Shown here: piece after piece, positions 24,063 through 56,604 of the stretch
How the letters are laid out: each line of letters begins with the position of its first letter
How positions within the stretch are numbered: position 1 is the first letter of the stretch
Assembly: GCA_963771175.1 (NCBI GenBank)
Contig: CAVYSY010000044.1
Span: 1 to 64,000, forward strand
Length of the DNA: 64,000 nt
Reading direction: 5' to 3'
Origin: an uncultured delta proteobacterium
GTDB taxonomy: Bacteria > Myxococcota > Myxococcia > Myxococcales > Myxococcaceae
Position numbers and translations under genes: made by a program
Notes under the pieces: generated by a model
Told to the model about the DNA's origin: nothing
Seen by the model: only the letters and a program-made list of their open reading frames with translations
The model's database searches: none

Positions 24063-24072
24063 AGCACGCCCC

Positions 24073-24112: not shown

Positions 24113-24158
24113 TAGCCTTGCCCCACCACTTCCGCCCCCTGCCGGAGATGAAGTCCCC

Positions 24159-25220: not shown

Positions 25221-25374
25221 CGAGGGCTCAGCGCGCCGTGAAGCCGCCGGCCATGACGAGCTCGCTGCCCGTCACGTAGCGCGAGGCGTCCGAGGCGAGG
25301 TAGAGAATGGCCTCGGCGATGTCCTCGGGTTCGCCCATGCGGCCCAGCGGCGAGGCGGCCTCCAGCTTCCTCCA
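25217..25374 (-). repeat. Left direct repeat: diverged copy of SDR 3' end (matches 46495-46651)
   Basis: [44 protein letters not shown] in both; roughly 90% nt identity by eye. Confidence 0.92.
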
Positions 25375-27545: not shown

Positions 27546-28187
27546 TCAGCCTCGGGCCGTGAGCACCAACAGCCCTTCATTCCGAGCCTGCGCCATTCGG
27601 AGTGCTCGGGGAATGAAGGCAAACAGGTCCTCTGGGTTGGTGCTTTGGTTGTTGCCTCGGGCCAGCCAGCTCTGGGCGCGCTCGAGCATCTCGGAGGAGG
27701 GGTGGTCGAGCAGTGCAGTGACGGCGCGCAGGCGTTCGCCGACGTCACTGGGCGCTGCGAAGAGGGCGCCGAAGTGGCCCGGCAGGCGCTCCGCCCGGTC
27801 CGGTCCCAGGCCGAAGTACAGGGCGGCGGCCGCTGGCGTGCGGTCGGCTATGAGCACGCTGGCGTTCTCCTCGGTGGGCTCGATACCCCACTCCTTGTAC
27901 TCCGCGCCGGTCATGAAGAGCCCTTCACCAAGGGCTCTCATGCCAGCGGGGCGGAAGATCTCGTCGAAGGTTTCGGAGTCCTTGGTCCTCTTCCACGCGT
28001 CAGCGTCGTCAGGGTCGGGTACGAGTTCGGGGCACAGTGAGCTGGGGGTCTTTCGCCAGCGGGCGAGCACCCGCCGCGCCGTCGCGCGCACAGGGGAGGC
28101 GGTGACAGCCTCGGAGAACCGCGCGGCGGCCGCGGGGACATGCTTGGGGGGGATGCACAGAGACAGCCATAGGAAGCTCACACCCAT
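27546..28187 (-). CDS. Hypothetical protein (cargo unit)
   Basis: 213 aa ORF ~70 bp from repeat copy 1. Confidence 0.65.
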   Translation of the reverse strand: MGVSFLWLSLCIPPKHVPAAAARFSEAVTASPVRATARRVLARWRKTPSSLCPELVPDPDDADAWKRTKDSETFDEIFRPAGMRALGEGLFMTGAEYKEWGIEPTEENASVLIADRTPAAAALYFGLGPDRAERLPGHFGALFAAPSDVGERLRAVTALLDHPSSEMLERAQSWLARGNNQSTNPEDLFAFIPRALRMAQARNEGLLVLTARG

Positions 28188-28257
28188 GACCAGAGAGTAC
28201 CCGGCCCGCAGGTGGGGCTGCGAGAGCTTCCGGGAGTTCGGTGGGCGCGCATAGGCC

Positions 28258-28325
28258 CCGGGGAAGGTGTCAAAGGATTCGTTCCGACACCTCGTCTCCT
28301 ACGAATCGTCTGACACCATTCCTGG
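28258..28325. repeat. 68 bp palindromic REP-like element, copy 1
   Basis: CCGGGGAAGGTGTCAAAGGATTCGTTCCGACACCTCGTCTCCTACGAATCGTCTGACACCATTCCTGG. Confidence 0.95.
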
Positions 28326-28446
28326 GCCCCCTTCCTTTGGAATCTCTCTTCGACGATAGGGTCTGGGGCGGTACGTTCCCGTTCGCAGCTCCTCGGCTAT
28401 CCGCGCCAGGAACTCCTCCCGGCCCGTCTCCTCGATGCGTTCGAAC

Positions 28447-28473
28447 GTACGAGTTCTTTGACACCTTCCCCGG
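28447..28473 (-). repeat. REP-like half-site, reverse orientation
   Basis: Reverse complement reads CCGGGGAAGGTGTCAAAGAACTCGTAC. Confidence 0.85.
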
Positions 28474-29111
28474 CTTCGGCGCCCGCATCCACGACCCGCA
28501 CACGCAGATGCGCATGCTGGAGGACCTCATGCGCCACTTCCAGAAGCTCAACCCGAGCGGCTGGGAGGCGGACCTGCTGGCCACCCTCAAGCTGGCCTTC
28601 CCCGAGCTGTACGAGGAGCTGGCCGCGCGCCTGCACCAGCGGCTCGACTACGAGAAGTGGATGAAGGAGCACCGCGACGAGCTGCAGCAGAAGCCCGACG
28701 CCGAGCGCCGCACCGCGGTGTGGGAGGAGCGCAACCGGCTCTTCGGCAAGGACGTGGCGGAAAAAATCTGGGCCGGCGAGCTGCGCAACCAGGCCGTGGC
28801 GAGCTCCCTGTCCACCATCGACGCGCTGCCGGATGCCACCGTCGGCGAGCGGATGGCGAAGTACAAGCAGAGCCTGGAGCAGACGTACGGCAAGGACACC
28901 GAGGCGTACGTGAAGCTGCACCAGCAGGAGCTGATGAACCACTTCCTGGACCTGGGCTCGGTGCAGAAGGAGCTCGCGACGCTGCCGCCCGACAAGCGCG
29001 CGGAGAGCCTGCGCTCCATCCGCCAGGACATGGGCCTGGACGAGGAGGCCCTCATGCGCTGGGACGAGCTCGACAAGATGCGCGACACCCGCTGGGAGGT
29101 GGGCTCGCAGT
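28473..29111 (+). pseudogene. 639 bp internal duplicate of lipase chaperone (24412-25050)
   Basis: Near-identical; three substitutions seen; lacks both termini. Confidence 0.95.
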
Positions 29112-29145
29112 CATTCCAAGAATAGGGAGCGAGCAGGAGGCTCCC

Positions 29146-29601
29146 CTACTTCAGGCGGACTTTGTGCCGCTCCGCCGTGGCGTTGGGCCGTCCCATGAAG
29201 GTGTCGAGAAGGCGTTCCTCCACCCCCACCTCTTCCCAAACAGAGGCGCGCTCAAGGCCGATGCACTCTTGCGGTTCCGCACGTCTCTCATTGCCGGCGG
29301 TGTCGAAGATCAAGCAGTCGCGGAAGTTCCCCCGGTCCTGCATGAACTGAACGATGGGTTGAGAAAACTGCTCTTCCAGCTTCCTCCACCCGAGGACTTC
29401 CCACCCCCTCTCGTCCATATGGCGAACAGCCATCTTGAAGAGGATGGGCATGGAGGCAATCCGGTCCAAGTCAGAATCCGGAGTGTCGGTCCTATAATCG
29501 TAATAGGCATCATGCGGCATGTTCAGCACCCGGCCGTAGCCAAAGGAGCCGTCTGCGAGAGGAATTCTCAAGAACGACCCGGGCTTGTAGAGGCGCGGCA
29601 T
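29146..29601 (-). CDS. Immunity protein, Imm26-like
   Basis: PGSFLRIPLADGSFGYGRVL...CIGLERASVW..VEERL. Confidence 0.75.
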   Translation of the reverse strand: MPRLYKPGSFLRIPLADGSFGYGRVLNMPHDAYYDYRTDTPDSDLDRIASMPILFKMAVRHMDERGWEVLGWRKLEEQFSQPIVQFMQDRGNFRDCLIFDTAGNERRAEPQECIGLERASVWEEVGVEERLLDTFMGRPNATAERHKVRLK

Positions 29602-29604
29602 CTG

Positions 29605-29853
29605 CTAATATCCCGTGTATGGGTGAAGTAGGCCCCACAACTCCGTGGCGGCATCGTGAAACCATCGGCCTCGCGGATTGTCCTTCGCCACGCCGCGTAC
29701 GGCATTCTCGGTGCGATAGGGCTCTCCAGTGTCGGAGCGGGCGCCTCCCAGGGAATCAATCAACTGCTGCTCTCTCCCGCGAATCCGCCAATACGCGACG
29801 TCATCATATCTCTGGCCATAGTCAATGGCGCTCCCAACATCGAACTTATCCCC
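29605..29853 (-). pseudogene. Orphan toxin C-terminal fragment, 5'-truncated at REP half-site
   Basis: Manual translation GDKFDVG...IRGREQQLIDSLGGARSDTG...NAVRGVAKDNPRG..FHDAA...YTGY*; stop 3 nt before Imm26-like ATG. Confidence 0.7.
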
Positions 29854-29878
29854 GGGAAGGTGTCAAAGGATTCGTTCC
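29851..29878 (+). repeat. REP-like half-site
   Basis: CCCGGGAAGGTGTCAAAGGATTCGTTCC. Confidence 0.9.
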
Positions 29879-30019
29879 AGCTCTCGGGGTGGACGGCCAT
29901 CGCCCACGGGAGACGGTCGGCCCGCGGCTCCGACACGGGCGGCGCTCTGGCACGGCTCCTGGCCGTGCCCTTGCATCGCGCCCCGTCGCACGTGGGGGCA
30001 CGAGGCCCTCCCGGAGGAG

Positions 30020-30613
30020 ATGACGATGGAGCGCTCGGGAATGAATGAGGTGTTGGAGCGGCTGCTGGGACTGGAGGGCCTGTGCGTGAAGGGCGCGAGC
30101 CTCGAACGCGAGGGACTGGTGGTCCACGCCCGGGTACGCCTCCCCGCGCCCCGGTGCGGAATCTGTAACGACTTCCAGCCCCCGTATGGCTGGCAGCCCG
30201 TGCGCCGATGGCGGCATCTCACGCTGGAGCGCACCCCCGTGTGGCTGAGCTACGCGCCGCACCGCGCGAACTGTCACGCGCATGGCGTCCGCGTGCAGCG
30301 GGTCCCCTGGGCGGCGCACGGCGCTCGCTGCACCACCGAGTTCGAGCAGATGATTCCCTGGCTGTGCCGCCGCATCGGCATTGCCGCCACCTGCCGGATG
30401 ATGCGCATTCCGTGGCGCACCGCCGAGCGCCTCCAGTCTCTGTGCGTCATGCTCATGCCGGACCTGAAGCGCATCGAGGAGCACTACGTCATCGGCGCGG
30501 ACGCGCTGTCGCTCCGAAGCCATGCGCGGGAACTGGCGGCGGTGCTGGAGCAGTTCGGGAGGCCCCAGCCCATCACGATGACGCTGCCCTCGCTGCCCGC
30601 GAGTGCTTGCTGA
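30020..30613 (+). pseudogene. ISL3-family transposase N-terminal part (zinc finger + HTH), no DDE domain
   Basis: RCGIC, RRWRHL, C..HGVRVQRVPWA...RCTTEFE; GGAGGA RBS. Confidence 0.75.
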
Positions 30614-30620
30614 GAGCCTA

Positions 30621-30648
30621 GCCGAGCGCACGCAGGGGATGGGGATGG
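30621..30648 (+). repeat. Exact 28 bp copy of RAYT 5' leader (35744-35771)
   Basis: GCCGAGCGCACGCAGGGGATGGGGATGG. Confidence 0.9.
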
Positions 30649-30659
30649 GCCGGGAAGGC

Positions 30660-30727
30660 CCGGGGAAGGTGTCAAAGGATTCGTTCCGACACCTCGTCTC
30701 CTACGAATCGTCTGACACCATTCCTGG
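30660..30727. repeat. 68 bp palindromic REP-like element, copy 2
   Basis: Identical to copy 1. Confidence 0.95.
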
Positions 30728-30789
30728 GCACCAGGAGGTATTCGGTTCCCTAAGAGACACACTCGGTGCTCTCGACAGCGGAGCCGCCC

Positions 30790-30809
30790 CCTACGAACCG
30801 TCTGACACC
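30790..30809. repeat. REP-like right arm overlapping the serine hydrolase stop
   Basis: CCTACGAACCGTCTGACACC. Confidence 0.8.
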
Positions 30810-32482
30810 CAGCCCCGATAGAGCTTGCCCACGCCCGAGCCTTCTCGGCTGCCGGCGGGCTCCTGGTTCAACCACTCGTCGTGAATGGAGGTGACCTCCA
30901 GGCCGTCCCCTGCGTCGAGCCCGATCCCGGAGGTGCCGACCTCGTTCTCGCCGGTGGTCTCGTAGACGAACTTGAAGTACCGGGAGCCGCTGTCGTAGCA
31001 ACGGATGGGAAAGCGCCAGAAGGGCCGTCCGTTCACCTGCTCGCCCATGCTGAGGAACACGTCGTCGCCCTCCCGCTCGATCACGATGTCACAGCCGTAG
31101 TAAGCGCTGTGGCCCCGGAACACGAGGCCCTTCCGCAGCAGGTCGGGGACGGGTTGGCGCGCGGTCTCGCGGTAGCGCTCCGCGTTCTCGAGCTTCTTCG
31201 CGTCGACCACGCTCACCATGCGATCGCGGCCGACCCCGAACAACTCGGCGTAGTCGAGCTCCCCGCCGCTCGTCTTCAAGGAGTCGGGCACCGGTTGTCC
31301 GTAGAGGTGATTGAAGAAGATCCTCGTCAGGATCTCCGGGACGCCGGCCATCTCGCCGTTCGTGAGGATGGCGACCCCGACGCCCATATCGGGATCGAAG
31401 CGCACGCACGTCGAGGCCCCCAGCTTGAACGCTCCCGAGTGGCTGAAGGAATATGCGTTGAGCGCGGCCGAGCCCACATTCCGGAAGGACTGCTCATCGG
31501 AGTAATCGGTGACGATCCACCCGAGCGAGTACCCCTTGGGATTGGGCTTCCGCTCGGGGAATTGATCGCCGAAGCGCTTGTCCAAATGGGCCCCGAGGAA
31601 CGTCGCCATATCCCGCGCCGAAGAGAGGAGCGACCCCGCAGGCGCCTGCCGCGTGGGGTTCCGTTCGTGCTCTTTGTCGACCATCCTCCACGACCACCCG
31701 AGGCGATCGTTCGGCAGCGGCGCGGTGGGCATGAGCAGCCACGAGCCCCGGTGAGGAATCACCCGATCCCCCGCCTCGCGGTCGAAGGCCGACGTGAAGA
31801 CGTACGTGGAGCGATTCATTCCCAGCTTCGTCAGCGCGTCCTTGGAGAAGTTCTCCCAGTCGGTCTTGGCGATGCCGCGCGCGGCGCCCAGGCAACCCAT
31901 GGTGAACCCGAAATTGGTGTAGCGGTGCACGCCCGGTTGGATGCCGGTCTGATGGTCCATGATGTTGCGGAGGAGCTGATCTCTGGGCATCGACGGGTTC
32001 ATGTCCTCGATGAGATCTCCGGCGTGATCGGGCAGCCCGGACAGGTGGCTCAACCACTGTCGGAGGGTCGTGCTCCCCGCCGCGTGGGCCAGTTTGTATG
32101 GATGCTTGCGCTCATTGTCTTGATACACGACCTCGTCCCACTTGGGCTCTCCGCCCGTTCTGTCGACGAGCAGTGTCGTCGAGACGGACTTGGACACCGA
32201 CGCGCAGGGGAACAACGTATCGGGGCCGGGCGTCGAGGAGGGATCGTCGAGCCTCTTCACGCCGTATCCGAAGTAGAGGACCTGGCTCGTCGGGCGGTGG
32301 ACGACCGCGATCGACAGGCCGGGTGTCCAACACTCCCCCCATGGCCCCTGGCGGGTGGCGAAGTCCGCCGCCTCCTTGAGCACGGCGACGGCCGCGTCCA
32401 CCTCGGCGGCGGTGCAGTGCCTCGTTTGCGGAGGCGGAGGGTCTTTGAGGTATTTGACGGCGTCGTAATCACTATTTTTCAT
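30791..32482 (-). CDS. Serine hydrolase, beta-lactamase/AmpC-like family
   Basis: FPCASVSK (SxxK), YTN, PAGSLLSSARDM, HSG; no signal peptide. Confidence 0.88.
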   Translation of the reverse strand: MKNSDYDAVKYLKDPPPPQTRHCTAAEVDAAVAVLKEAADFATRQGPWGECWTPGLSIAVVHRPTSQVLYFGYGVKRLDDPSSTPGPDTLFPCASVSKSVSTTLLVDRTGGEPKWDEVVYQDNERKHPYKLAHAAGSTTLRQWLSHLSGLPDHAGDLIEDMNPSMPRDQLLRNIMDHQTGIQPGVHRYTNFGFTMGCLGAARGIAKTDWENFSKDALTKLGMNRSTYVFTSAFDREAGDRVIPHRGSWLLMPTAPLPNDRLGWSWRMVDKEHERNPTRQAPAGSLLSSARDMATFLGAHLDKRFGDQFPERKPNPKGYSLGWIVTDYSDEQSFRNVGSAALNAYSFSHSGAFKLGASTCVRFDPDMGVGVAILTNGEMAGVPEILTRIFFNHLYGQPVPDSLKTSGGELDYAELFGVGRDRMVSVVDAKKLENAERYRETARQPVPDLLRKGLVFRGHSAYYGCDIVIEREGDDVFLSMGEQVNGRPFWRFPIRCYDSGSRYFKFVYETTGENEVGTSGIGLDAGDGLEVTSIHDEWLNQEPAGSREGSGVGKLYRGWVSDGS

Positions 32483-32535
32483 CGTACGACTACATATGCG
32501 CGCCCGGGCACCGTCAATAGGAAGAGCCTGTCTGA

Positions 32536-32648
32536 GAAGGTGTCAAACACCTCGTAAGCGGCGGGGAAGGTGTCGGGGAAGGCGGGGAAGGTGTCAAAGG
32601 ATTCGTTTCGACACCTCGTCTCCTACGAATCGTCTGACACCATTCCTG
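32536..32648. repeat. REP-like cluster: short variant, stuttered left ends and full copy 3 (32582-32648)
   Basis: GGTGTCAAACACCTCGTAA; GGGGAAGGTGTC repeated; full copy with one internal substitution. Confidence 0.93.
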
Positions 32649-32695
32649 CCGCCACCTCGGGTCTGATTTCGAGCTGGGCGTGGGCGCAGGCCCCA

Positions 32696-33046
32696 TCATC
32701 GGAGCAAGAACGTCCGGTGGGCCTCCGCGAGCCCATCGAACGCGGCCTGTTGCCGACGAATCGCCTTGAGGAGATCCATGCCGCAGTGAGGACAGTACTG
32801 CAGCGGGAGCTCCATCATCACCTTGATGCCGAGGGCGCGCCCTTGCTCATCGCGGTTCAGGCGCCCCATCAGCTCTCCGTGCTCCTTGCCCAGCGCCCCC
32901 AGTTCCTTCAGCTGCCACTCCGTGAAGGGTCTCGCCTGGACGACGAACCGGCGATAGTCCCCATCGCGGAAGGCCACCACGCCCAGGCCCTGACTCCCAG
33001 TGGTCGCGAGCATGTTCGTCAACCATTCGCAGCCTTCGAATTCCAT
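32696..33046 (-). CDS. Small hypothetical protein with CxxC (cargo unit)
   Basis: YCPHCG; fills the interval between repeat copies 3 and 4. Confidence 0.7.
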   Translation of the reverse strand: MEFEGCEWLTNMLATTGSQGLGVVAFRDGDYRRFVVQARPFTEWQLKELGALGKEHGELMGRLNRDEQGRALGIKVMMELPLQYCPHCGMDLLKAIRRQQAAFDGLAEAHRTFLLR

Positions 33047-33056
33047 GACCGATTCT

Positions 33057-33135
33057 CCGGGGAAGGTGTCGGGGAAGGTGTCAAAGGATTCGTTCCGACA
33101 CCTCGTCTCCTACGAATCGTCTGACACCCTTCCTG
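33057..33135. repeat. REP-like element copy 4 with duplicated left end
   Basis: CCGGGGAAGGTGTCGGGGAAGGTGTCAAAGG...TCTGACACCCTTCCTG. Confidence 0.95.
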
Positions 33136-33153
33136 CGCAACCTCCGAGGCGCG

Positions 33154-33930
33154 TCACTCCGCCCAGGTGAGCACTTCCACCATGCGCACGAAGAGCCGGT
33201 CGTTGCTGACGGCGGCCACCACGAAGCCCGCCGACTCGCCCGGGCCGCCCCGGCCCATGGAGCGCCAGCTCGAGATGTAGAGCCGCTGGCCGGTGCCCGA
33301 AACCTGCTTGAGGTACGCCACCGCCCCATCCACCTCCGCCGCGGTCGGCGTGCCCGAGTACGTGCGCTGCTGCAGCCGGGTGCGCAGCTCGGCCTCGGTG
33401 ACGGGCTCGAAGAAGTACGGATAGTCGTAGTAGCTGCCGAAGGCCCACCCGTACGTCTCCAGCAGCGTCACCTGATTGGCCTCGCCGTCGCCCTCGGCGA
33501 TGGAGCCCTCCTGGATGCGCGAGCTGCTCGCGAGCGGTCCGCTCGCGCCGTACAGCTGGGCCGGCGTGCCCGACACCGCGTCCATCCCCAGCGGGTTTCC
33601 GTAGTCCGCCGCGTCGTTCAGCTCGTGGAAGGCGTTGAGGTACGTCTTCGCATCCGCCGCCACGCCGGTGAGGAAGGTGGCATTGCCCACCTTCGTGGCC
33701 AGGTGAGCATGCTCCGCCGAGTCCACCCAGTAGTCCGAGGCGAAGGCGTCGAGCGCGTTCACCATCTCCGAGCGGGTGACCGTCGTGCCACTGGTGCTGG
33801 TGCTGGCACGCGCGGCCGTCATCCTCGAGTCGAAGAGGGCAATGTTCGCGGCGCTGTCCGCCAGGGCGGCAGGCGCGGTCAGCAGCGCCAGTGCGCCGAC
33901 GAGGGACTTGAGAGAGGAGCTGGACTTCAT
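33154..33930 (-). CDS. Secreted hypothetical protein (cargo unit)
   Basis: Signal peptide ...LLTAPAALA; GC3 bias. Confidence 0.8.
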   Translation of the reverse strand: MKSSSSLKSLVGALALLTAPAALADSAANIALFDSRMTAARASTSTSGTTVTRSEMVNALDAFASDYWVDSAEHAHLATKVGNATFLTGVAADAKTYLNAFHELNDAADYGNPLGMDAVSGTPAQLYGASGPLASSSRIQEGSIAEGDGEANQVTLLETYGWAFGSYYDYPYFFEPVTEAELRTRLQQRTYSGTPTAAEVDGAVAYLKQVSGTGQRLYISSWRSMGRGGPGESAGFVVAAVSNDRLFVRMVEVLTWAE

Positions 33931-34089
33931 GGGGGGGGACCTCGCGAAGGCCGGGGGGGCCAGTAGGGGGGGGGGACTTCATCGAAGTTCCTACTATCGT
34001 TCAGAATGGCAGATCCAGCGGAAAAATCATGTTTCACTGCTTTTGCGGGTTCGTGACACAGGCTTCAAACGGCGCGACGCAGGGCGTCG

Positions 34090-34550
34090 AGGAGGGCGTC
34101 CAGGTCCGCGTCGGTGTGAGGGGATTGATGAGGGTGGTGCGCAGCTACACGCGCCCGCCGAGCGTGGTCTGCACCAGGTAGAAGTCCCCGCGGGTGACGA
34201 GCGACTCGCGCAGACGCACCTGGAGCGCGTCGAGCGCCGAGGCGGGGAGGCCCTGGGGGGGGTGTGGCGGAAGCAGACGATGTTGCAGTCGGGCGGCATG
34301 GCCAGCTCGAAGTCGCCGGAGGACTGGAGGCGCTCGGCGAAGCGGCGGGACAGGTCGAAGGGGTCGGTGACGGAGTCGGCGAAGAGCTTCGTGCCGAGGG
34401 TGCTCAGGCAGGTATACAGCTCGAGGGCCATCATCTCCTTGGTGCACTCGAGGGTGCGCAGCGCCACGTCGCTCCAGCGCCGCGTGTCCTGGCCGGTGAA
34501 GAGGTCGGAGGCCTCCTGGGCGAAGGCCTCGAAGGAGCGGTGGCCCTCGC
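34090..34550 (-). pseudogene. C-terminal fragment of a PLP-dependent group II decarboxylase
   Basis: RTLECTK, PDCNIVCFRH, FYLVQTTL..LRTTLINP; frameshift ~34255, stop at 34145; 5'-truncated at REP variant. Confidence 0.8.
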
Positions 34551-34617
34551 CATTACGAGGTGTTTGACACCCATTACGGGGACACCCATTACGAGCCATT
34601 ACGAGGTGTTTGACACC
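34551..34617 (-). repeat. REP-like short variant cluster
   Basis: CATTACGAGGTGTTTGACACC x2 plus partial CCATTACG units; reverse complement of 32539 variant. Confidence 0.88.
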
Positions 34618-34676
34618 TGGGCCGGCGCCTGGGCCGCCTGGGCTGTGGCCGCCTGGGCCGCTCTCGAACAGCCTGC

Positions 34677-35447
34677 TCACTGCCCGAGCGATTGGGGCGG
34701 CGGCTTCACGCTGAACATGGGCAAGTAACACTCACCCTGGTGCTCGTAGAGGTTATCCGGGCAGGGGCCCTTCAGCTTATGAGGCACCCAGCAGGCGCCG
34801 ATGAGCTCTACCTCGGTGTAGCGCGTGCAGGGGGGACGTTTCTGTCCTTTGAAGGGCTCGCGTGGGAGAGGTCGGGCGAGCACGAACTCTCCCTGGGGCG
34901 TACTGTCCGCGAGCCAACCGTCGTTGACAGGGTCTGGCCTTCCAGTGGCCAGCGGAGCGCTCACTCCAGGCGCCAGACCGTTCGGCGGTTGGGACACGGG
35001 AGCCAGATGAACCAGGGTGAAGAGCAGGGCGCCCACCACGACGGCACCAGCCAATCCCACGTGCCACCAGGGGCGCCGGGGCGCGGGTGAGGCGGAGAAG
35101 GCGTGTGCCATGCGCCCCACGGCCTTGTGCACATCCTCCAAGGTGGACACCAGCGACTCCACCGATTGCCTGTCGGGAGCCACGGACCTCGGGGTTTGCT
35201 CCACCTCCATGGCATCGTAGCCAGACGTGGAGATGATGCGGACCCGCAGGTCGATCAGCGGCTCCGCCCTCTCCTCATCCCTGGCGGCGGGCTTGAACAC
35301 CAGGGCCGGCGCCCCACTCGTCTCGTGCGTGGCCCGGTAGAGCTCCCCCTGGCCGCAGTCGTCCTGCGGCACCTGCTCCTGGAGTTGATACGGCCCCACC
35401 TTCCCCGCTTCCTCCCAGCTCAACTCGGGCTTCTTCGGCTCATCCAT
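34677..35447 (-). CDS. Myxobacterial membrane protein with kinase-N-lobe-like start and Cys-rich C-terminal domain
   Basis: VGPYQL..GELYRATHETSG.PALV; TM helix; GQKRPPC..CW..CP..CYLP. Confidence 0.75.
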   Translation of the reverse strand: MDEPKKPELSWEEAGKVGPYQLQEQVPQDDCGQGELYRATHETSGAPALVFKPAARDEERAEPLIDLRVRIISTSGYDAMEVEQTPRSVAPDRQSVESLVSTLEDVHKAVGRMAHAFSASPAPRRPWWHVGLAGAVVVGALLFTLVHLAPVSQPPNGLAPGVSAPLATGRPDPVNDGWLADSTPQGEFVLARPLPREPFKGQKRPPCTRYTEVELIGACWVPHKLKGPCPDNLYEHQGECYLPMFSVKPPPQSLGQ

Positions 35448-35574
35448 GCGCGATCCTCGCTGGCCTCCACTCCTGCCCGAGGCCCTGCCCCCGTGCTCGC
35501 ATGGAGCCGAACTCATGCACCAGGAGGCATGCGGTTCCCTCAGGGGCTCCCTACTCAACAAGAGACACGCCAGA

Positions 35575-35645
35575 GACGGTGTCCAGAGAGGGTGTCAAAG
35601 GATTCGAATCGCCCAGAGACGGTGTCAAAGGATTCGAATCGCAGG
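35575..35645 (+). repeat. Tandem REP-like left arms upstream of RAYT
   Basis: CCAGAGA(G/C)GGTGTCAAAGGATTCGAATCGC x2. Confidence 0.9.
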
Positions 35646-35771
35646 ACTTGAGCCAGAACGAGACTCGGCGTGGACGGGTGAACCTACCGGCTCCCAAGTC
35701 TTTCTGCGGACTTGGAGTTGGCCCACAGGGTGCATCCGGCCTGGCCGAGCGCACGCAGGGGATGGGGATGG

Positions 35772-36704
35772 ATGGGCTGGCCGTTGAGGATGTTCCAGGA
35801 GGAGGGTCTCTATTTCGTCACGTCCAGGTGCTTCCAGGGACGGCTGCTGCTGCGTCCCAGCGCGGAGGTGAACGAGGTGGTTGGAGGCGTGCTGGCGCGA
35901 GCCGTCCAGCGGAGCGCCGGTCACGTGCGGCTGCACGCCTTCACCTTCGCTTCCAACCACTTCCACCTGCTGGTGTGGGCGCGGGGGGCAGCGCTCTCCG
36001 CCTTCATGCAGTACCTGCGTGCCAACCTGTCCAAGAAGCTGGGGAGGTTGGTGGACTGGAGCGGCGGTTTCTGGGAGAGGCGTTACTCGGCGGAGCCGGT
36101 GCTGGACGACGGGGCGCTGGTGGGGCGGCTGCGCTACGTACTGGCCCATGGGGTGAAAGAGGGGCTGGTGGAGAGAAGCACCGAGTGGCCGGGCCTCACG
36201 TGTCTACCGCAATTGCTGGGGCCGGCACGGCGACTGTTCCAGTGGTTCAACTGGACGAAGCGCTGGACCAAGAGGGGGAGCGAGGACATGGCAAGAGCGC
36301 AGGGGCGCTTTGCCAAGGAATGGGCTGAGCCAGTGGCGTTGGAGGTGGCTCCCCTGCCGTGTTGGGAAGGCCTGGGGGAGGAGGAGAGGCAGCGTGCGGT
36401 GCGGGGACTGGTGGAGGAGGTGGAGGCCGAGGCTCGCGCACGGGACAAGCCTGTCCTGGGGGCGCGAGCCGTGAAGGCCCAGCACCCGCATACCCGGCCC
36501 GAGCAGCTCAAGCGCAGCCCGCGGCCGTTGGGGCATGCCTCCACGCGCCAGGCGCTGAGGGAGTTGCGCGAGCAGTACCGTGCCTTCGTCGCGGCGTTCC
36601 AAGAGGCGGCGGCTCGGTGGAGGCGGGGAGACTTCTCGGCGAGCTTTCCTCTCTACTCCTTCCCGCCGCGTATCGTGCCGGGTCGTGTCGCGCGAATCCT
36701 TTGA
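35772..36704 (+). CDS. HUH/Y1 REP-associated tyrosine transposase (RAYT-like, IS200 superfamily)
   Basis: YFVTSRC, SNHFHLL (HUH), FWERRY, LRYVLAHGVKEGLV (catalytic Tyr), WPG. Confidence 0.88.
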   Translation: MGWPLRMFQEEGLYFVTSRCFQGRLLLRPSAEVNEVVGGVLARAVQRSAGHVRLHAFTFASNHFHLLVWARGAALSAFMQYLRANLSKKLGRLVDWSGGFWERRYSAEPVLDDGALVGRLRYVLAHGVKEGLVERSTEWPGLTCLPQLLGPARRLFQWFNWTKRWTKRGSEDMARAQGRFAKEWAEPVALEVAPLPCWEGLGEEERQRAVRGLVEEVEAEARARDKPVLGARAVKAQHPHTRPEQLKRSPRPLGHASTRQALRELREQYRAFVAAFQEAAARWRRGDFSASFPLYSFPPRIVPGRVARIL

Positions 36705-36737
36705 CACCCTCTCCGGACACCCTCTCCGGGCACCCTG
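36693..36737 (-). repeat. Inverted REP-like arm with stutters at RAYT 3' end (contains its stop codon)
   Basis: CGAATCCTTTGACACCCTCTCCGGACACCCTCTCCGGGCACCCT. Confidence 0.9.
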
Positions 36738-36899
36738 CCTACCGGGCAAGCTCTTCATCACCCCTCCTCTCCGGGGCAGGGGAGTTCACTGCCGGGCGTG
36801 GGCATCGTGCCGCGGTGTTCCTCTCTGTCGTTGCAGTCGGAATCCCGTCTGCCCCCGGGGGCTCATGGTCGCGAGCGCATTCGGACGAATCCTTGGCGC

Positions 36900-38855
36900 A
36901 TGACTTCCTGCCCACGAATCCTCGTGGCCGTGGTGCTCCTGCTCGGTGGCACACGGTGTATGGACAAGCAGCCGCCCGTGGTGGATGACGGGTCTCCCCG
37001 GGAGGTGCTCGAGCCACCTCCCGCGGCGCCCGCGACGCCGCCGCCGCAATCCAGGTCGAGGCGGGAGGTCATGTACCGCTTCCTGGACGAGGGGGACCGG
37101 GAGCGCGCCAATCTCCTCCTCGCCAACCGCTGGCCCGTCACACGTTTCCCGGACGTCGAGCTGCCTCCGTCACCTACGTGGACGGAGGATCCGTTCCGCG
37201 AGAAGTTCTGGCGCTTCGAGTTCTACGGGCTGCGCCCCTTGCGCCACCTGATGCGGGCCTGGCTCGACACCGGGGATGACCGCTACCGCGTCCGGCTCAC
37301 CGCGGTGCTGGAGAGCTTCGTCGCGCACGGTCATGACTCCGCGTTCGCCTGGGACAAGCACACCACCGCCTACCGGGGTATGTCCCTGGTCAACCTCTAC
37401 GTGAAGCTGAAGTCGCGCGGGGCGCTCCCGCCCGGGTTGGAGCAGGGCCTGCGCGAGCGCATCCTCGAGGTCGGCTCCTTCCTCCACGACCCCAAGAACT
37501 ACGAGCCCGACTACAACCATGGCCTCGCCGAGGCCGGGGCGCTGCTGCTCATCGCGGAGAACTTCCCGGAGTCCCAGGCCGCCTCCTCCTGGCGCACCAC
37601 GGCCCTCGCGCGGCTGGACGGGCTGCTCGCTCAGGTGCTCGACGAGGACGGGGTGGAGGTGGAGCAGTCGCCCTTCTACCACTTCTATTTCATGACGGGC
37701 TTCTGGGAGATCTACCACTGGGCCCGCGAGAACGACGTTCCGCTCTCGCCCCAGGCGGAGACGCGCATCCGACAGATGATCCGCTACGCCGCATACATCA
37801 CCCTGCCCGATGGGAACGTCCCGATGCTCGGCACGAGCGTGGCGCGCAACGTGCGCAAGTCCCAGGACACGCCCCGGTACGCGGAGATGGCCGCCCTGGA
37901 CCCCGCCTTCGAGTACGCGCTGACGGCAGGCCGCTCGGGCACGCCGCCACCGGAGACGCGGATGCTCTTCCCCTCCTCGGGGCAGGCGGTGCTGCGCTCC
38001 AGCTTCGGCACGGCGGCGGACTTCCTCCAGCAGACGCACGTGATTGTCGACGTGGGCCCGTACCGGACGCTCCACAGCCACCTGGACGCGCTCGCGTTGC
38101 AGCTCTACTCGGCCGGCCGGACGCTGCTACCGGACTCGGGCCACTTCTCCCCCGAGCCCGGGCCCGACTTCGACTACTTCAACAGCACTCGCGCCCATAA
38201 CACCGTGGTGGTGGATGGGCGGGACCAGCGCGTGGGCGCGGCCCGGGCCGGGTTGTCCACGGGGGCGGGCGGTTGGGCCTACCAGTCGGGCGCGCACGAG
38301 CTCTACGACGGTGTCGTGCACCGGCGCGCGGTGTTGTTGCTCCGGCGCGACCTGGTGCTCGTCGTGGACGACCTGAGCAGCGCCACCCCGCATGTCTACG
38401 AGCAGACCTGGCACCTCTTCCCCGAGGCGGAGCTGCGGGTGGAGGACCTGCGGGCGACGGCCCTCGAGTCCGGCTCGGGCCGGGCACTGCTCACCCTGCA
38501 CCAGTTGATGCCCGCATCCGGCTTGGACCTCCAGTGGCGCAAGGGGCGCACCGCGCCCCTCGACGGGTGGTACTCCGCGCGCTTCGAGATCAAGCTCCCC
38601 AACTACGCGCTGCATTACCAGCGCAAGGCTGCGCAAGCGGTGTACGTCACCGTGCTGGCCTCGGGCGAGCTGGCGAGCCTGCCCCTGCAAGGAGGGGCGC
38701 GGGGCGACACCCGGAAGCTGGAGGCCACCGTGTGCCTGCCCTCGGGGGCTGGCTATCACGTCGCCATCACGAACCTGACCGGGCCCGGGGAGGGGGTCAC
38801 CGTGGACGAAGTGCCCGCCTCCTGCCAGGTGCCCGCCCTGGACTCGCGGCCGTAG
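36900..38855 (+). CDS. Heparinase II/III-like exported protein
   Basis: NHGL, DGVEVEQSPFYH, HSHLDAL, AHNTVVVDG, HRRAV, WHL; N-terminal signal. Confidence 0.85.
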   Translation: MTSCPRILVAVVLLLGGTRCMDKQPPVVDDGSPREVLEPPPAAPATPPPQSRSRREVMYRFLDEGDRERANLLLANRWPVTRFPDVELPPSPTWTEDPFREKFWRFEFYGLRPLRHLMRAWLDTGDDRYRVRLTAVLESFVAHGHDSAFAWDKHTTAYRGMSLVNLYVKLKSRGALPPGLEQGLRERILEVGSFLHDPKNYEPDYNHGLAEAGALLLIAENFPESQAASSWRTTALARLDGLLAQVLDEDGVEVEQSPFYHFYFMTGFWEIYHWARENDVPLSPQAETRIRQMIRYAAYITLPDGNVPMLGTSVARNVRKSQDTPRYAEMAALDPAFEYALTAGRSGTPPPETRMLFPSSGQAVLRSSFGTAADFLQQTHVIVDVGPYRTLHSHLDALALQLYSAGRTLLPDSGHFSPEPGPDFDYFNSTRAHNTVVVDGRDQRVGAARAGLSTGAGGWAYQSGAHELYDGVVHRRAVLLLRRDLVLVVDDLSSATPHVYEQTWHLFPEAELRVEDLRATALESGSGRALLTLHQLMPASGLDLQWRKGRTAPLDGWYSARFEIKLPNYALHYQRKAAQAVYVTVLASGELASLPLQGGARGDTRKLEATVCLPSGAGYHVAITNLTGPGEGVTVDEVPASCQVPALDSRP

Positions 38856-39043
38856 ACGGGGACCGGAGCTCGATTCTCACCTTCGTCTCGCGCTCTGGAC
38901 AAGTCCACCTCGGCTCCCGCCAAGAAGCCCGGCACCGTCTATCGGGTAGAGGGGCCGGAGAACCAGTGCGTTTCCTTCGACAACGGAAAGCCCCATGTCT
39001 CCAAGTCCTTCCATACCAAGACGGTGATGAAGGCCTCTGACAT

Positions 39044-39176
39044 GCTGGGGCGGTTGGTGGACTGGCGCGGCGGTTTCTGGGAGAGGCGTTACTCGGTGGA
39101 GCCGGTGCTGGACGACGCGGCGCGTGTGGGGCGGCGACTGCGTGTCGTGCCGGGTCGTGTCGCGCGAATCCTTTGA
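39044..39176 (+). pseudogene. Internally deleted RAYT remnant
   Basis: Matches ~36038-36130 joined to the RAYT 3' end (36673-36716 = 39145-39188). Confidence 0.88.
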
Positions 39177-39251
39177 CACCCTCTCCGGCGAATCCTTTGA
39201 CACCCTCTCCGGGACACCCTCTCCGGAATGTCGAGTTTGACACCCGTCCGG
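39165..39251 (-). repeat. Tandem inverted REP-like arms
   Basis: CGAATCCTTTGACACCCTCTCCGG x2 plus two partial GACACCC units. Confidence 0.9.
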
Positions 39252-39313
39252 CCCTTTCGAGCACGGCAGAAAGGGGAGCTGCCCATACGTTGGAGGGAGA
39301 AGAGGAATGGTCG

Positions 39314-42300
39314 ATGCCCCTCCGACTCCTGACGTACGAAGCAGTCGACGAACTCTACGAAAGCCGACGCACGCAGATCTGGCGAGGGCATCGGCTGGCG
39401 AGCGGTGAGCCGGTCGTCCTGAAGGTCCTGAAGCCCGAGGCGGCCACCGACAGAGAGCACGCCCGGTTCAGGCACGAATTCCTGCTCACCGCCAGGGCCG
39501 AGCTCCCAGGGGTCATCAAGACGTTCAGCCTGGAGTCCTTCGACGGAAGCCTGCTGATGGTGCTGGAGGACATCGGCGGCGAGTCGCTCGAGCGCCTCTG
39601 CGCACGGACGCCGCTCTCCCTGCCGCGATTCCTGGAGCTGGCGATCGGGCTCGCCGACACCGTGGCACGGCTCCACCAGCGGCGAATCATCCACAAGGAC
39701 ATCAATCCGGCGAACATCGTCCTCGCCCCAGAGACCGGCGAGTATCGGCTGATCGATTTCGGCATCGCCGACGAGCTTCCCCAGCACGAGGTCGCCCCGC
39801 GCCCACCGGCCGCGCTGGAAGGGACGCTCGCCTACATCTCGCCCGAGCAGACGGGGCGGATGAACCGCGCGGTGGACTACCGCACTGATTTCTACTCACT
39901 GGGCGCGACCTTCTACCAGCTGCTGACGGGGCGGTTGCCGTTCGAGGTCGACGACGCCCTGGGACTGGTGCACTGCCACATCGCCGGAACACCGAGGGCG
40001 CCGCATCTGCTCGATCTCCGGATACCGCAGACGGTTTCCCGCATCGTGATGAAGCTGATGTCGAAGCGGGCAGAGGACCGCTACCAGAGCGGCTGGGGGC
40101 TGAAAGCGGACCTGGAGAGGTGCTGGCGGGGACTGCGCGAGGAGGGGGGCGTCCCGGACTTCGAGCCCGGCCTGGAGGACTTCGCCGACCGGCTCCAGCC
40201 GCCGCAGAAGCTCTACGGACGCGAAGAGGAGGTCGGCCGCCTGCTCGCCGCCTTCGAACGGGCGGGCGCGGGAGGACGCGAGCTGCTCCTCGTGGCCGGC
40301 TACGCCGGCGTGGGCAAGACCACGCTGGTGCGCGAAACGCACCGCCCGATCCTGGAGAAGCGAGGGAGCTACATCGAGGGCAAGTTCGATCAGCTCCAGC
40401 GCAATGTGCCCTATTCCGGCTGGATCCAGGCGTTCGAGGGGTTCGTGAACGACCGCTTGATGGAAAGCGAGTCGGAGTTGGCGCGCTGGAGGCGAGACCT
40501 CCTGAGCGCGGTGGGAAGCAGCGGCAAGGTCCTGACGGATGTGATTCGGAACCTGGAGCTGGTCATCGGAGCCCAGCCCGCCGTTCCCGAGCTGAGCGGC
40601 GCCGAGGCGCAGAACCGCTTCAACTACCTGTTCCTCGCGCTCGTCGGAGCCATGGCCACGAGGGAGCATCCGCTTGTCGTCTTCCTCGATGACCTGCAGT
40701 GGATTGATGAGGCCTCGCTCGGCCTGCTGCGGACCCTTCTGACCAGCAGCGGCATCTCGAGCGTCCTGGTCATCGGCGCCTATCGCGACAACGAAGTGAA
40801 CGCGCTGCACCCGCTGATGAGGACCGTCGAGGCCCTGCGCAAGGAGGAGGCGAGGTTCGAACTGCTGACTCTCGGGAACCTCTCGGAACAGACGGTCGAC
40901 GAGCTCGTCGCCGATACCCTGCGGGATGAACGCTCGCGCACCAGGCCGCTCGCCCGTCTCATCTACTCGAAGACGGGAGGCAACGCGTTCTTCACGCTCG
41001 AGATGCTCACGAGCCTGGCGGAGCGGCGGGCCATCTCCTTCGACGTCGAGAGCCGACGCTGGCAATGGGACATCTCCGTGCTCGAGCGCATGGAGATCAC
41101 CGACAACGTCGTCTCCCTGATGCTCGGGAAGCTCCAGAAGCTGGAGTCGAACACGCGCCGGGTGCTGACTCTCGCGGCGTGCATGGGTTTTCGATTCGAC
41201 GTGTCGAACCTGAGCACCATCGCCCGGCGCTCCGAGGACGACACACGGGAGAGCCTGGAGCCCGCGCTGCGCGAGGGCCTCGTCGTGCCCGCGGGGTCGG
41301 AGTTCCAGTTCGCGCACGACCGCGTGCAGCAGGCGGCCTATTCGCTCATCCCCGAGGCCGACGAGAAGAAGACGCACCTGGAGATCGGTCGGCTTCTGCT
41401 TCGGCGTCCCTCGGAGCGCGACCACGAGGAGCAGCTCTTCACCGTGGTCGATCATCTGAACGTCGGAGCCGGGCTGCTCGAGACGGACGCCATGAGGCTG
41501 GAGCTCGCCGGCCTGAACCTGCGGGCAGGGCGCAAGGCCAAGGCCTCCGCCGCGTTCGCCGCGGCCGCGAGGTACTTCGAGGCCGGGGTGGCGCTGCTGG
41601 GCGAGGAGACGTGGGCGACCGACTACCGACTGACGCTCGACCTGCACTCCCTGGCGGCGGAGGCCGCCACCCTCGTCGGCGATTTCCGGCGGACGGACCT
41701 CCACTTCGACGCCGTCGTCCGTCACGCCCGCAATCCAGCCGACATGGTCGCGGCGTACATGAGCAGGATGATGGCGTTTTCGGCGCAGGGCCGGCTTCCG
41801 GAGTTCATGGATTGCGCTCTGGACATTCTCGATCGGCTCGGCGTCCACGTGGAGCCGCACCCGACCGCCGAGGACATCCAGCGCGCGCTGGCGGAGGTCA
41901 GGTCAGCCTACGACCCGAAGGCCATCGGGGCTCTCATGAATCTTCCGAGCGCAACCGATCCCTTCGCGATGGCGGCCATGTCAGTCCTGGATATGGCGAC
42001 AGGCAGCGCCTACAGCGGCAGACCGGACCTGTACGTGTTGTTCGTGTGCCAGCAAGTCAAACGCACCATCGAATTCGGCATCACTCCCGAGTCGATGCGT
42101 TCCTTCGCATGCCTGGGATTGCTCCTTTGCGGACTGCCGGGCGGAGACGTGGACCAGGGCTACCAGTTCGGCATGCTGGCAATGGCGCTCGCCGAAAAGG
42201 CGCCGTCCTCCGTGAGCGCCCCCGGGGCCATGGGCCTTACGGCGGGAATGGGCTTGCACTACAAGCGGCACCTGCGGGATTCGCTCGAGCTGCTCGCCCC

Positions 42301-56573: not shown

Positions 56574-56604
56574 CCCGGGAAGGTGTCGGAGGATTCGAGT
56601 CGCC
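56574..56604 (+). repeat. Diverged REP-like half-site
   Basis: CCCGGGAAGGTGTCGGAGGATTCGAGTCGCC versus GGTGTCAAAGGATTCGAATCGCC. Confidence 0.75.

Follow-up and report, generated by a model that had tools for sequence, protein, structure and literature searches.

Does the transposase gene at 35772-36704 of the 64,000-nt stretch of DNA analysed here (the window) belong to a cassette array in which an HUH enzyme acquires and shuffles cargo genes, as the initial annotation proposed from the palindromic repeats around it? The initial interpretation is partly supported overall: the enzyme type and its bracketing by the repeat stand, whereas the integron-like reading is not supported. The region most probably represents clustered insertions and rearrangement scars whose integron look is a by-product, and we consider it probable that an accessory, partly decayed region was colonised by one family of small elements together with its non-autonomous derivatives.

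The repeat-rich region itself is real. The window contains 86 occurrences of the hexamer GGTGTC where 43 are expected, and none of 100 shuffles reaches 86. Searching with the 16-nt arm motif GGTGTCAAAGGATTCG, allowing up to four mismatches while keeping GGTGTC, yields 20 copies in the window; 50 simulated sequences average 0.64 and never exceed 2. A profile made from these 20 sites recovers the same 20 in the window at E<=0.001, the remaining 24 of the 44 listed matches having E values of at least 0.26. All arms except one (at 56574) cluster within 28258-39212, and this density (19 in 11 kb) is far above that of any other locus retrieved. Besides four full doublets, each an inverted pair of arms, there are 11 more arms that stand alone or flank the transposase gene. 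By our own count, 10 of the 15 gene or gene-fragment junctions between 27.4 and 39.3 kb hold at least one arm. Taken singly, arms do not fold (z -0.27, +0.36, -1.30 and +1.10), and no significant covariation was detected in the repeats, which are near-identical in sequence (39 of 500 shuffles attain the score).

The assignment of the product of 35772-36704 to the HUH/Y1 enzymes of the RAYT kind is supported by motif conservation, a profile match and the predicted fold. H63 and H65 of the HUH motif and Y122 are nearly invariant across 60 homologues and intact in the window protein, where the HUH motif reads NHFH, the tyrosine motif Y-x3-HG and the W motif WE. The NCBIfam model REP_Tyr_transpos matches residues 6-140 (model positions 4-144 of 146) with 50.9 bits, short of its cut-off of 80, and the Pfam Y1_Tnp match (21.1 bits) is under its cut-off of 23. 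For the AF2 model, which is confident (pLDDT 94.2), the top PDB fold match is 4ER8, E. coli TnpA-REP bound to a REP hairpin (TM 0.70 over 155 columns), followed by ISDra2 and IS608 TnpA. The protein also has an additional conserved domain of about 170 aa at its C-terminus, in which no Pfam HTH match was found. The gene, its ends and the related repeats are as follows:

35772..36704, + strand: RAYT/TIRYT-like HUH-Y1 transposase gene (310 aa, P0001), full length
35570..35642, + strand: element left end, with full arms 35583-35611 and 35613-35641 and partial box 35570-35583
36691..36729, - strand: element right end, one arm and a partial box, inverted partner of the left end
39044..39250, + strand: decayed second transposase element, with two gene pieces, two right-end arms, a partial box and a variant arm
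30616..30648, + strand: 33-nt vestige, 97% identical to DNA just upstream of the transposase start codon
28257..28330, + strand: doublet 1, inverted arm pair around an 18-nt centre, miniature element
30659..30732, + strand: doublet 2, 99% identical to doublet 1
32581..32654, + strand: doublet 3, preceded by variant arm 32532-32558 and then partial box 32562-32574
33068..33141, + strand: doublet 4, preceded by partial box 33057-33070
28446..28473, - strand: solo arm, outer end at the left junction of the duplicated foldase segment
29851..29879, + strand: solo arm where the toxin C-terminal fragment is cut short at its 5' end, next to the ISL3 fragment
30790..30814, - strand: solo arm providing the stop codon of the beta-lactamase-fold ORF
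34551..34624, - strand: pair of GGTGTCAAACACCTCG-type variant arms with a GGTGTC box, where the PLP-decarboxylase fragment is truncated at its 5' end
56574..56600, + strand: sole arm outside the cluster, outer end abutting a 77-nt Coq4-like gene duplicate

As initially noted, the transposase gene is bracketed by the repeat found in neighbouring intergenic spaces: 37-nt inverted arms (35570-35606 and 36693-36729) are 92% complementary, and the stop codon falls within the right one. Judged from sequence, the autonomous unit is about 1.16 kb long (35570-36729), with these arms of about 37 nt as its bounds. The left end is constant while the upstream DNA is unrelated in A. lansingense, two C. fuscus strains and Vitiosangium, and the right end is likewise constant with unrelated flanks in other species; the element has evidently moved between genomic sites in relatives. 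Single chromosomes of C. fuscus and A. lansingense hold at least 3 to 5 distinct 90%-identity transposase clusters each, and many of the listed Archangiaceae homologues are truncated, which marks the gene as multi-copy and decaying in Archangiaceae genomes. In the decayed copy of the window, 39044-39135 matches 36038-36129 at 93.5% identity, and 39140-39188 matches 36668-36716 at 98%; the 33-nt vestige lies 10 nt from doublet 2.

The four full doublets are 74 nt long, 91-99% alike and all in a single orientation, and doublets about 90% alike also occur in A. minus, C. fuscus and A. lansingense. On folding, doublet 1 forms an imperfect hairpin (-16.5 kcal/mol, z -3.2). At locus L040, an internally deleted copy of the transposase element lies about 450 nt from a 70-nt element made up of that copy's left and right ends, and locus L044 holds an internal deletion resembling it. 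Full-length, internally deleted and miniature end-plus-end forms all occur in one element family, the repeats being copies of the transposase element's own ends. The window doublets differ from the window transposase copy in flanking heptamers and inner arm sequences and are not its direct derivatives. Such a range of full-length, internally deleted and minimal forms is shared with MITEs; unlike in MITEs, the presumed enzyme is HUH-Y1 and not DDE, and a target-site duplication was not observed at any of the four doublets.

Around the repeats, a series of unrelated single genes had been described. Pfam upholds the Imm26 protein and the beta-lactamase-fold hydrolase, several other units turn out to be fragments or duplicates, and the proteins called 'CxxC', 'secreted' and 'membrane' belong to no family, with one hydrophobic segment in each of the latter two:

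27546..28187, - strand: hypothetical protein, 213 aa, no family (90% cluster of 5 members, Archangium or unnamed)
28473..29111, + strand: foldase-gene duplicate, 639 nt, 99.5% identical copy of internal part 24412-25050
29146..29601, - strand: Imm26-family immunity protein (Pfam Imm26, E 2.7e-12; 75-member cluster across Archangiaceae)
29605..29850, - strand: toxin C-terminal fragment, 81-codon frame, no family, ending 3 nt before the Imm26 start
29825..30613, + strand: ISL3-family transposase N-terminal fragment (HTH_Tnp_ISL3; NF033550 only 1-155 of 370)
30791..32482, - strand: beta-lactamase-fold serine hydrolase, 563 aa (PF00144, E 1.5e-34; alone in its 90% cluster)
32696..33046, - strand: protein of 116 aa containing a CxxC pair, no family (sole member of its 90% cluster), doublets close on both sides
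33154..33930, - strand: 258-aa protein with hydrophobic N-terminus, no family (cluster of 5)
34027..34560, - strand: PLP-dependent decarboxylase C-terminal fragment, pseudogene (PF00282 only 306-373 of 375)
34677..35561, - strand: protein of no family, single hydrophobic segment (A. lansingense L062 has a 50% identical homologue)
36798..38855, + strand: heparinase II/III-like protein between the intact and decayed transposase copies

The toxin, PLP-decarboxylase and ISL3 pieces, the foldase duplicate and the decayed transposase copy (39044-39188) are not whole genes. We read 29605-29850 as a toxin fragment from its position relative to Imm26; its last 17 codons or so are also found in A. minus (L002).

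Arm ends meet truncated genes and the boundaries of two local duplications, which marks the arms as rearrangement breakpoints and argues in favour of some role for them in rearrangement. The outer end of arm 28446-28473 is the left junction of the foldase duplicate. As the source of this duplicate has no arm, a simple repeat-repeat crossover does not account for it, and its 99.5% identity indicates that at least one arm-associated event was recent. Similarly, the outer end of arm 56574-56600 abuts 77 nt that duplicate, at 92%, the 3' end (62366-62442) of a Coq4-like gene. Outside the doublets, the 11-mer at their centre has a single copy (0.01 expected), which lies 10 nt from the breakpoint at the source of the foldase duplicate. 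Duplicated host-gene pieces that end exactly at arms would also fit enzyme-driven DNA capture.

The arms are dispersed in other Archangiaceae, an observation based on 16 loci, nine of which hold only about 400-1800 nt. In the seven loci of about 12-20 kb, arms adjoin ordinary genes, among them TetR, GH88, penicillin amidase, P450, kinase and SDR genes. Copy number is apparently low, at least a few exact 16-mers per genome among the matches listed; most of the matches listed in the collection scan for arms are chance occurrences in unrelated taxa. L062 of A. lansingense carries three doublets in 7 kb, and in L044 the deleted copy, one doublet and one solo arm lie within 7 kb. Relative to the doublets, the genes between them are on the opposite strand in the window, whereas L062 has them on the same strand. 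The Imm26 piece that L002 has in common with the window is accompanied by an arm at another distance and in another orientation, and no cassette homologue with a doublet at the same relative position was seen in the loci compared.

A scheme for the colonisation of the region can be proposed. In analogy to the TnpA of IS608 and the TnpA-REP of E. coli, the enzyme would recognise the arms and cut and rejoin one strand at their outer ends. The doublets would present a hairpin in single-stranded DNA. The 74-nt doublets would represent miniature left-end-plus-right-end derivatives, MITE- or REPIN-like, and the solo arms remnants. Since inverted ends of the double-stranded type are unusual for Y1 enzymes, an IS608-like mechanism serves as an analogy only. 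Strand-specific insertion would explain why the units within a locus all point one way. We assume that the element reinserts locally and that insertions falling between dispensable genes are tolerated, so that copies build up here, and activity or recombination at arm ends may have caused the neighbouring deletions and duplications, leaving truncated genes and duplicated pieces next to arms.

Alternatively, the copies could be inactive relics of an old burst in non-essential DNA, with the arms acting as short homologies or hairpins for host recombination and replication slippage. Consistent with this are the window's decayed copy and vestige, the many truncated homologues and the hairpin folding of doublets; in addition, doublets 1 and 2, direct and 99% alike, are sufficient for homologous recombination. 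We regard it as unlikely, however, in view of a full-length window gene with intact HUH motif and tyrosine, an element position that varies among related genomes, and a recent foldase duplication from a source without an arm.

A gene-capture platform, in which the enzyme would cut at arms or doublets, excise the DNA between two of them as a single-stranded circle and reinsert it at another arm, so that genes would be gathered, stored and shuffled as cassettes beside the transposase gene, is distinctly improbable, even though several features speak for it. In addition to the arms at gene junctions, the duplicates ending at arm outer ends and the 11-mer near the foldase breakpoint, the whole genes between the four co-oriented doublets all run away from the transposase gene, two doublets tightly bracket the 116-aa gene, cargo genes are rare or unique at 90% identity and the heparinase gene is flanked by two direct copies of the transposase element. 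The region also shares with integrons a recombinase gene beside short, mostly same-strand genes split by foldable repeats, the genes being rare and without known function. However, the claim that the repeats delimit shuffled cassettes is not supported: they are the element's own ends and miniature derivatives, adjoin ordinary genes elsewhere and differ between the window and L062 in their orientation to genes, while several units are gene fragments or other mobile-element remnants on both strands and the L002 arm is placed differently. In contrast to structurally conserved attC sites, the repeats form one near-identical sequence family that also occurs outside arrays, and no IntI tyrosine recombinase was found among the ORFs scanned. 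An integron-type cassette array is likewise unsupported in view of the multi-copy decaying gene, its differing flanks, the miniature derivatives and the near-identical repeats without significant covariation. None of the papers listed in literature searches describes cargo arrays of this kind.

Roles as terminators, mRNA stabilisers or protein-binding sites have been proposed for some REPs. That the host keeps arms or doublets for such a function is very improbable, because, although three doublets lie just 3' of minus-strand genes and arms are about 90% conserved across genera, one doublet is upstream of its gene, arms intrude into coding sequence, no Rfam family matches within 24000-47500 at E<=0.1, covariation is not significant and the need for transposase recognition explains the conservation equally well.

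Among described systems, IS200/IS605 elements (IS608, ISDra2) share with this family the HUH-Y1 fold and a multi-copy, mobile character with partial copies. The element here differs in having neither a Y-x3-Q motif nor a tnpB gene, in its 170-aa C-terminal domain and in its inverted terminal arms, which contrast with the differing subterminal hairpins of IS200/IS605. REPIN-RAYT systems were reportedly set out by Bertels and Rainey in 2011. According to passages of a later paper (Bertels and Rainey 2017, PMC5581495), such a system has a Y1 transposase gene with its cognate repeat on either side, a mobile unit consisting of an inverted repeat pair that forms a long hairpin, and solo repeats as remnants, all as here; classic RAYTs occur at about one copy per genome and are vertically inherited. 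By contrast, the present gene is multi-copy, often truncated and at a locus that varies by genome, its single arms are not palindromes and its repeat is apparently low-copy (at least a few exact 16-mers per genome among the matches listed).

The closest described kind, going by the relevant passages of Di Nocera et al. 2013 (PMC3733652) and Quentin et al. 2018 (PMC6006769), is the TIRtron/TIRYT, or a RAYT with its repeat family. Differences concern the Y-x3-HG motif, compared with Y-x3-NP in class 2 (Y[IV]HLNP or YIELNP in Table 1 of PMC6006769), a repeat that does not conform to GGGGWSAS, the motif cited for many TIRYT repeats, a C-terminal domain without a Pfam HTH match and the multi-copy gene with many decayed copies. 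A search for myxobacterial genus names in the accessible text of both papers gave no occurrences. The likenesses are a RAYT-related Y1 gene with long inverted-repeat flanks that are not GTAG REPs, a protein longer than classic RAYTs with a C-terminal domain, and repeats present as singles, dimers and clusters, which PMC3733652 describes for RAYT-like genes with long inverted repeats as 'moderately abundant families'. TIRYTs are linked in PMC6006769 to TnpAY1 subclass 2.1, whose listed motifs the NHFH and WE motifs match and which is said there to be prevalent in delta-proteobacteria, among others.

In the repeat-rich region at about 27.4-39.3 kb, a transposase element, decayed copies of it and miniature derivatives cluster at unusual density, within a variable, partly decayed island. 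The window has a G+C content of 69%, is part of a contig of 203,721 nt and encodes proteins whose closest relatives are found in Archangium, Cystobacter and Vitiosangium; it is treated here as belonging to the Archangiaceae. The hexamer GGTGTC occurs 86 times in the window against 43 expected occurrences; a more informative unit is the arm, the end repeat of the transposase element, which reads GGTGTCAAAGGATTCG with a variable heptamer in front. With up to four mismatches allowed, 20 arms are detected where 0.64 are expected, 19 of them within 28258-39212 and one at 56574. A profile generated from these 20 arms finds the same 20 again at E<=0.001, the next best hit in the window having an E value of 0.26. 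Four doublets of 74 nt, each consisting of two inverted arms and an 18-nt centre, are 91-99% alike and share a single orientation. An arm is present at 10 of the 15 junctions between genes or fragments in the 27.4-39.3 kb region (manual count). The dense arms and doublets near the transposase, as well as the bracketing of its gene by the same repeat, were described in the initial annotation and are borne out here: the gene is flanked by inverted arms of 37 nt with 92% complementarity, the right one of which contains the gene's stop codon. An Rfam search of 24000-47500 returned no family. The main features are as follows.

Features of the repeat cluster and its surroundings (window coordinates unless a locus is named)
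28257-28330, 30659-30732, 32581-32654 and 33068-33141: doublets 1 to 4
28331-28448, minus strand: open piece of 39 aa (TFERIEETGREEFLARIAEELRTGTYRPRPYRRREIPKE) between doublet 1 and a solo (unpaired) arm
30616-30648: leader vestige of 33 nt
35570-36729: transposase element, with the transposase gene at 35772-36704, plus strand
39044-39250: gutted second transposase copy
32562-32590, 33057-33077, 35570-35590, 36709-36729 and 39205-39226; also 275-316 of the C. fuscus locus L108, and locus L093: tandem outer arm boxes
57410-59755, minus strand: large serine recombinase with Resolvase, Recombinase, Zn ribbon and MerR domains
60213-61028: protein with an AHH nuclease domain, in a second island

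Each doublet is predicted to fold into an imperfect hairpin (-16.5 kcal/mol, z about -3.2), while stretches with solo arms fold no better than shuffled sequences (z -1.3 to +1.1). Doublet pairing is retained in 86.6% of cells, mainly because the arms hardly vary; this value is equalled by 105 of 500 shuffles, and no significant covariation signal was detected in the doublets, the score being reached by 39 of 500 shuffles. Among the window arms, GTAG is confined to one arm type, where it is located at the inner end. The outer 12-13 nt of the arm (heptamer plus GGTGTC) are often tandemly repeated just outside it, and at the left end of the transposase element whole arms are tandemly duplicated, with a period of 30 nt in the window and 26 nt in the C. 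fuscus locus. These tandem duplications could be a footprint of transposition chemistry.

The transposase is a distant member of the RAYT/TnpA-Y1 superfamily. This assignment follows from an alignment that spans the whole NCBIfam model REP_Tyr_transpos, even though the score of 50.9 bits is below the cut-off of 80; the Pfam family Y1_Tnp falls slightly short as well (21.1 bits, cut-off 23). Among 60 full-length homologues (35-82% identity), H63, H65, W101, R104 and Y122 are nearly invariant, with H63-F-H65 representing the HUH motif, and the C-terminal 170 residues contain a further dozen nearly invariant positions. NHFH and WE are present, and the tyrosine motif is YVLAHG (family consensus Y-x-L-x-H-G). 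A sequence search of the PDB gave no match at E<=1. The AlphaFold (AF2) model of the protein (pLDDT 94.2) has as its top PDB fold match 4ER8, the Escherichia coli TnpA-REP with a REP hairpin (TM 0.70), followed by the TnpA proteins of ISDra2 and IS608. The C-terminal domain found no fold match in the structure search of the PDB, and its 170 residues no Pfam HTH match. The motifs, the fold match and the whole-length, below-cut-off NCBIfam alignment together sustain the original description of an HUH/Y1 enzyme of the RAYT kind. At E<=1e-30, the homologue family comprises 471 representatives, mostly of about 300 aa with full-length alignments, and an atlas search places the nearest clusters most commonly in Myxococcota.

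In copy number and flanks, the transposase element behaves like an insertion sequence. Three C. fuscus chromosomes of 11,853,193, 12,349,744 and 12,231,006 nt carry at least five, four and three distinct 90%-identity transposase clusters, respectively, the A. lansingense chromosome carries at least three, and many of the listed homologues are truncated proteins. The left end, comprising about 5 bases before GGTGTC and a 150-nt leader up to the start codon, is common to A. lansingense, two C. fuscus strains and Vitiosangium, with unrelated upstream DNA in each; the right end is likewise conserved, with differing flanks. A tblastn search of PLSDB detected no relative of the transposase on plasmids. 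Vitiosangium (locus L040) has a copy with an internal deletion and, about 450 nt away, a 70-nt element composed of the left and right ends of this very copy, a pair that shows the origin of doublets as end-plus-end derivatives. Doublets about 90% alike are present in A. minus, C. fuscus and A. lansingense, the latter with a different centre.

An exact 16-mer scan of genome_contigs identified at least 119 loci. The source genome was absent among the matches listed, and 103 of the 119 were from unrelated taxa, which we take to be chance matches. Seven Archangiaceae loci of about 12-20 kb have arms and doublets between ordinary genes, including GH88 and TetR genes, penicillin amidase, P450, an AI-2E transporter, Ser/Thr kinases, a LytTR two-component pair, SDR, kelch proteins and hydrolases; judged from these neighbours, the repeats are apparently not confined to arrays. 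Three co-oriented doublets share 7 kb in one A. lansingense locus (L062), and in another locus (L044) a stretch of 7 kb combines a deleted copy of the transposase with a solo arm and a doublet that has extra arms. None of the seven long loci is syntenic with the window, and they are thus uninformative on gain or loss at this site.

The initial annotation had also described unrelated single genes between repeats, which holds in part: seven units are whole genes and five are fragments. The whole genes encode a 213-aa hypothetical protein, Imm26, a hydrolase of the beta-lactamase fold, a CxxC protein of 116 aa, a protein of 258 aa whose N-terminus is hydrophobic, a single-pass membrane protein and a heparinase II/III-like protein. 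The fragments include a toxin-like C-terminal piece upstream of Imm26 (no Pfam family), the C-terminus of a PLP decarboxylase, the N-terminus of an ISL3 transposase and a 639-nt copy of the foldase gene. At 90% identity, neither the hydrolase nor the CxxC protein clusters with any other protein, and the others have few relatives, except Imm26 (75). The G+C content of the region, 0.59-0.67, is below that of its flanks. The 39-aa piece after doublet 1 has no Pfam match; we presume that it resembles reverse transcriptases of group II introns or retrons at their N-terminus. In A. minus (L002, 9661-10016), an arm follows a truncated Imm26 homologue and the final codons of the toxin-like frame upstream of it, at another distance and in the opposite orientation compared to the window; this is another decayed toxin-immunity module beside an arm.

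These genes and fragments lie within a larger interval. A remnant of the SDR gene 3' end at 25224-25374, located 3 nt past the foldase stop codon, forms a 151-nt direct repeat (94%) with 46501-46651. Because this SDR 3' copy directly follows the foldase gene, the sequence suggests that about 21 kb (25.4-46.5 kb) were inserted between two once-adjacent, once-convergent neighbours. Neither an integrase nor a tRNA gene was found in 25.4-46.5 kb, and the window contains no tRNA gene as an island anchor. On the left side, 25518-27406 encodes a DUF6310 protein (378 aa, with a hydrophobic segment and proline-rich 18-nt repeats at 26099-26170) adjoining a DUF5953 protein (254 aa); by position, these could be a pair of the toxin-immunity type. 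On the right side, 39306-46498 directly follows the decayed transposase copy and encodes a signalling protein of about 2400 aa with Ser/Thr kinase, AAA_16, GAF, several PAS and histidine kinase domains, its stop codon being 6 nt from that of the SDR gene. At 22722-25220, an alpha/beta-hydrolase (lipase-like) gene is followed by a Lipase_chap match (E 5e-5, below the cut-off), so the label foldase for the latter is weak.

Among known systems, the array is of the RAYT/TIRYT kind and the integron analogy is a look-alike. The available excerpts of Di Nocera et al. (PMC3733652) describe RAYT-like genes with long inverted repeats unrelated to GTAG REPs, named TIRtrons or TIRYTs; in some species, these repeats make up families whose members occur singly, as dimers or in clusters. 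The window resembles them in both respects: its Y1 gene lies between 37-nt inverted arms (92%) unrelated to GTAG REPs, and its 20 arms, including four dimers, belong to a repeat family also present in related genomes. According to excerpts of Quentin et al. (PMC6006769), most TIRYTs fall into TnpAY1 subclass 2.1, which is prevalent in epsilon-, beta- and delta-proteobacteria and presents the motifs NH[YF]H, W[EQ] and Y[IV]HLNP or YIELNP and a C-terminal HTH-like domain. Compared by motifs alone, the window protein has NHFH and WE in common with this subclass and differs in its tyrosine motif (Y-x3-HG versus Y-x3-NP). Classic RAYTs are approximately single-copy (Bertels et al., PMC5581495, in the part available), whereas on C. 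fuscus and A. lansingense chromosomes the window's gene family is represented by at least three to five clusters each, with many truncated proteins, and its flanks differ in each genome, unlike those of a single-copy vertical RAYT. REPIN-RAYT systems feature tens to hundreds of extragenic copies. Their REP is palindromic in itself and has GT[AG]G as its foot, and two inverted REPs make up a REPIN; in the window, the solo arms do not fold and the doublets do. The TnpA of IS200/IS605 is short with Y-x3-Q, acts with subterminal hairpins and is often accompanied by tnpB, in contrast to the 310-aa protein with Y-x3-HG and inverted arms; no tnpB-like ORF is located next to the transposase gene.

Integrons comprise the tyrosine recombinase IntI, attI and a promoter, whereas the adjacent enzyme here is HUH-Y1. 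No phage-integrase family member was detected among the ORFs scanned, in which the only other recombinase is the large serine recombinase. Integron cassettes are excised in circular form and inserted again, each with one attC site in a fixed orientation relative to its ORF. The attC sites of integrons are conserved in structure and variable in sequence; the window repeats are 91-99% identical without significant covariation, and genes and doublets, which have the same orientation in the A. lansingense locus L062, are opposed in the window. These repeats, the mobility resembling that of insertion sequences, the gene fragments and the occurrence of repeats beside ordinary genes elsewhere speak against the functional integron analogue initially proposed. 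The excerpts of the three papers contain no myxobacterial genus names and no cassette arrays. A literature search yielded nothing on RAYT/TIRYT elements of this kind in myxobacteria or Archangiaceae and nothing on RAYT-built cassette or integron-like arrays; the TIRYTs it retrieved are described by sequence only, with no experiment found.

Several breakpoints coincide with arm ends. The foldase duplicate (99.5%) begins at the outer end of the solo arm 28446-28473, and the arm at 56574, the only one outside the cluster, directly adjoins a 77-nt duplicate (92%) from the 3' end of a Coq4-like gene; in these two local duplications, boundaries and arm outer ends lie within about 2 nt of each other, and two of the three duplicated host-gene segments in the window end at an arm. 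The toxin and decarboxylase pieces are both cut at arms, and the hydrolase stop codon is supplied by an arm. Adjacent deletion from element ends is a known behaviour of other insertion sequences and would explain the truncations; by itself, it does not account for the duplicates. Unequal crossover between arms was rejected as the cause of the foldase duplication, as the source copy has no arm. The 11-mer TCGTCTCCTAC forms the centre of all four doublets, and its sole other copy in the 64 kb (expected 0.01) is at 24391-24401, 10 nt upstream of the start of the source foldase segment. Taken with the two duplications, this extra 11-mer hints at an unlikely reading, in which arm ends are active joints: the RAYT-like enzyme would cleave an arm at its outer end and join the cut end to pseudo-sites in host DNA nearby, copying or moving gene pieces (transduplication); over time, captured genes and fragments would build up into a mosaic island next to the transposase. 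If true, this would be HUH-driven array building, undescribed in the literature searched, and host-DNA capture at arm ends would be a new route to gene shuffling. That the HUH enzyme acquires genes at arms, as gene capture proper, agrees with the duplication boundaries at arm ends and is improbable.

This Archangiaceae element family is a convenient study set in a soil bacterium that is not pathogenic, combining an intact gene with decayed copies, a form with an internal deletion, miniature forms made of two ends, and rearrangement junctions that look fresh. This set could reveal how a Y1 enzyme handles inverted ends, and whether its repeats cause deletions and duplications in myxobacteria, whose genomes are very large and plastic.

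Finally, a second small island at 56496-62442 has 77-nt direct repeats (92%) of the Coq4-like 3' end at both borders. Integration by the serine recombinase is a possible cause of the Coq4 duplicate and fits poorly, since the TMEM164 gene, which lies beside the Coq4-like gene, would fall inside the island. The sole arm outside the main cluster is located at the left edge of this island.
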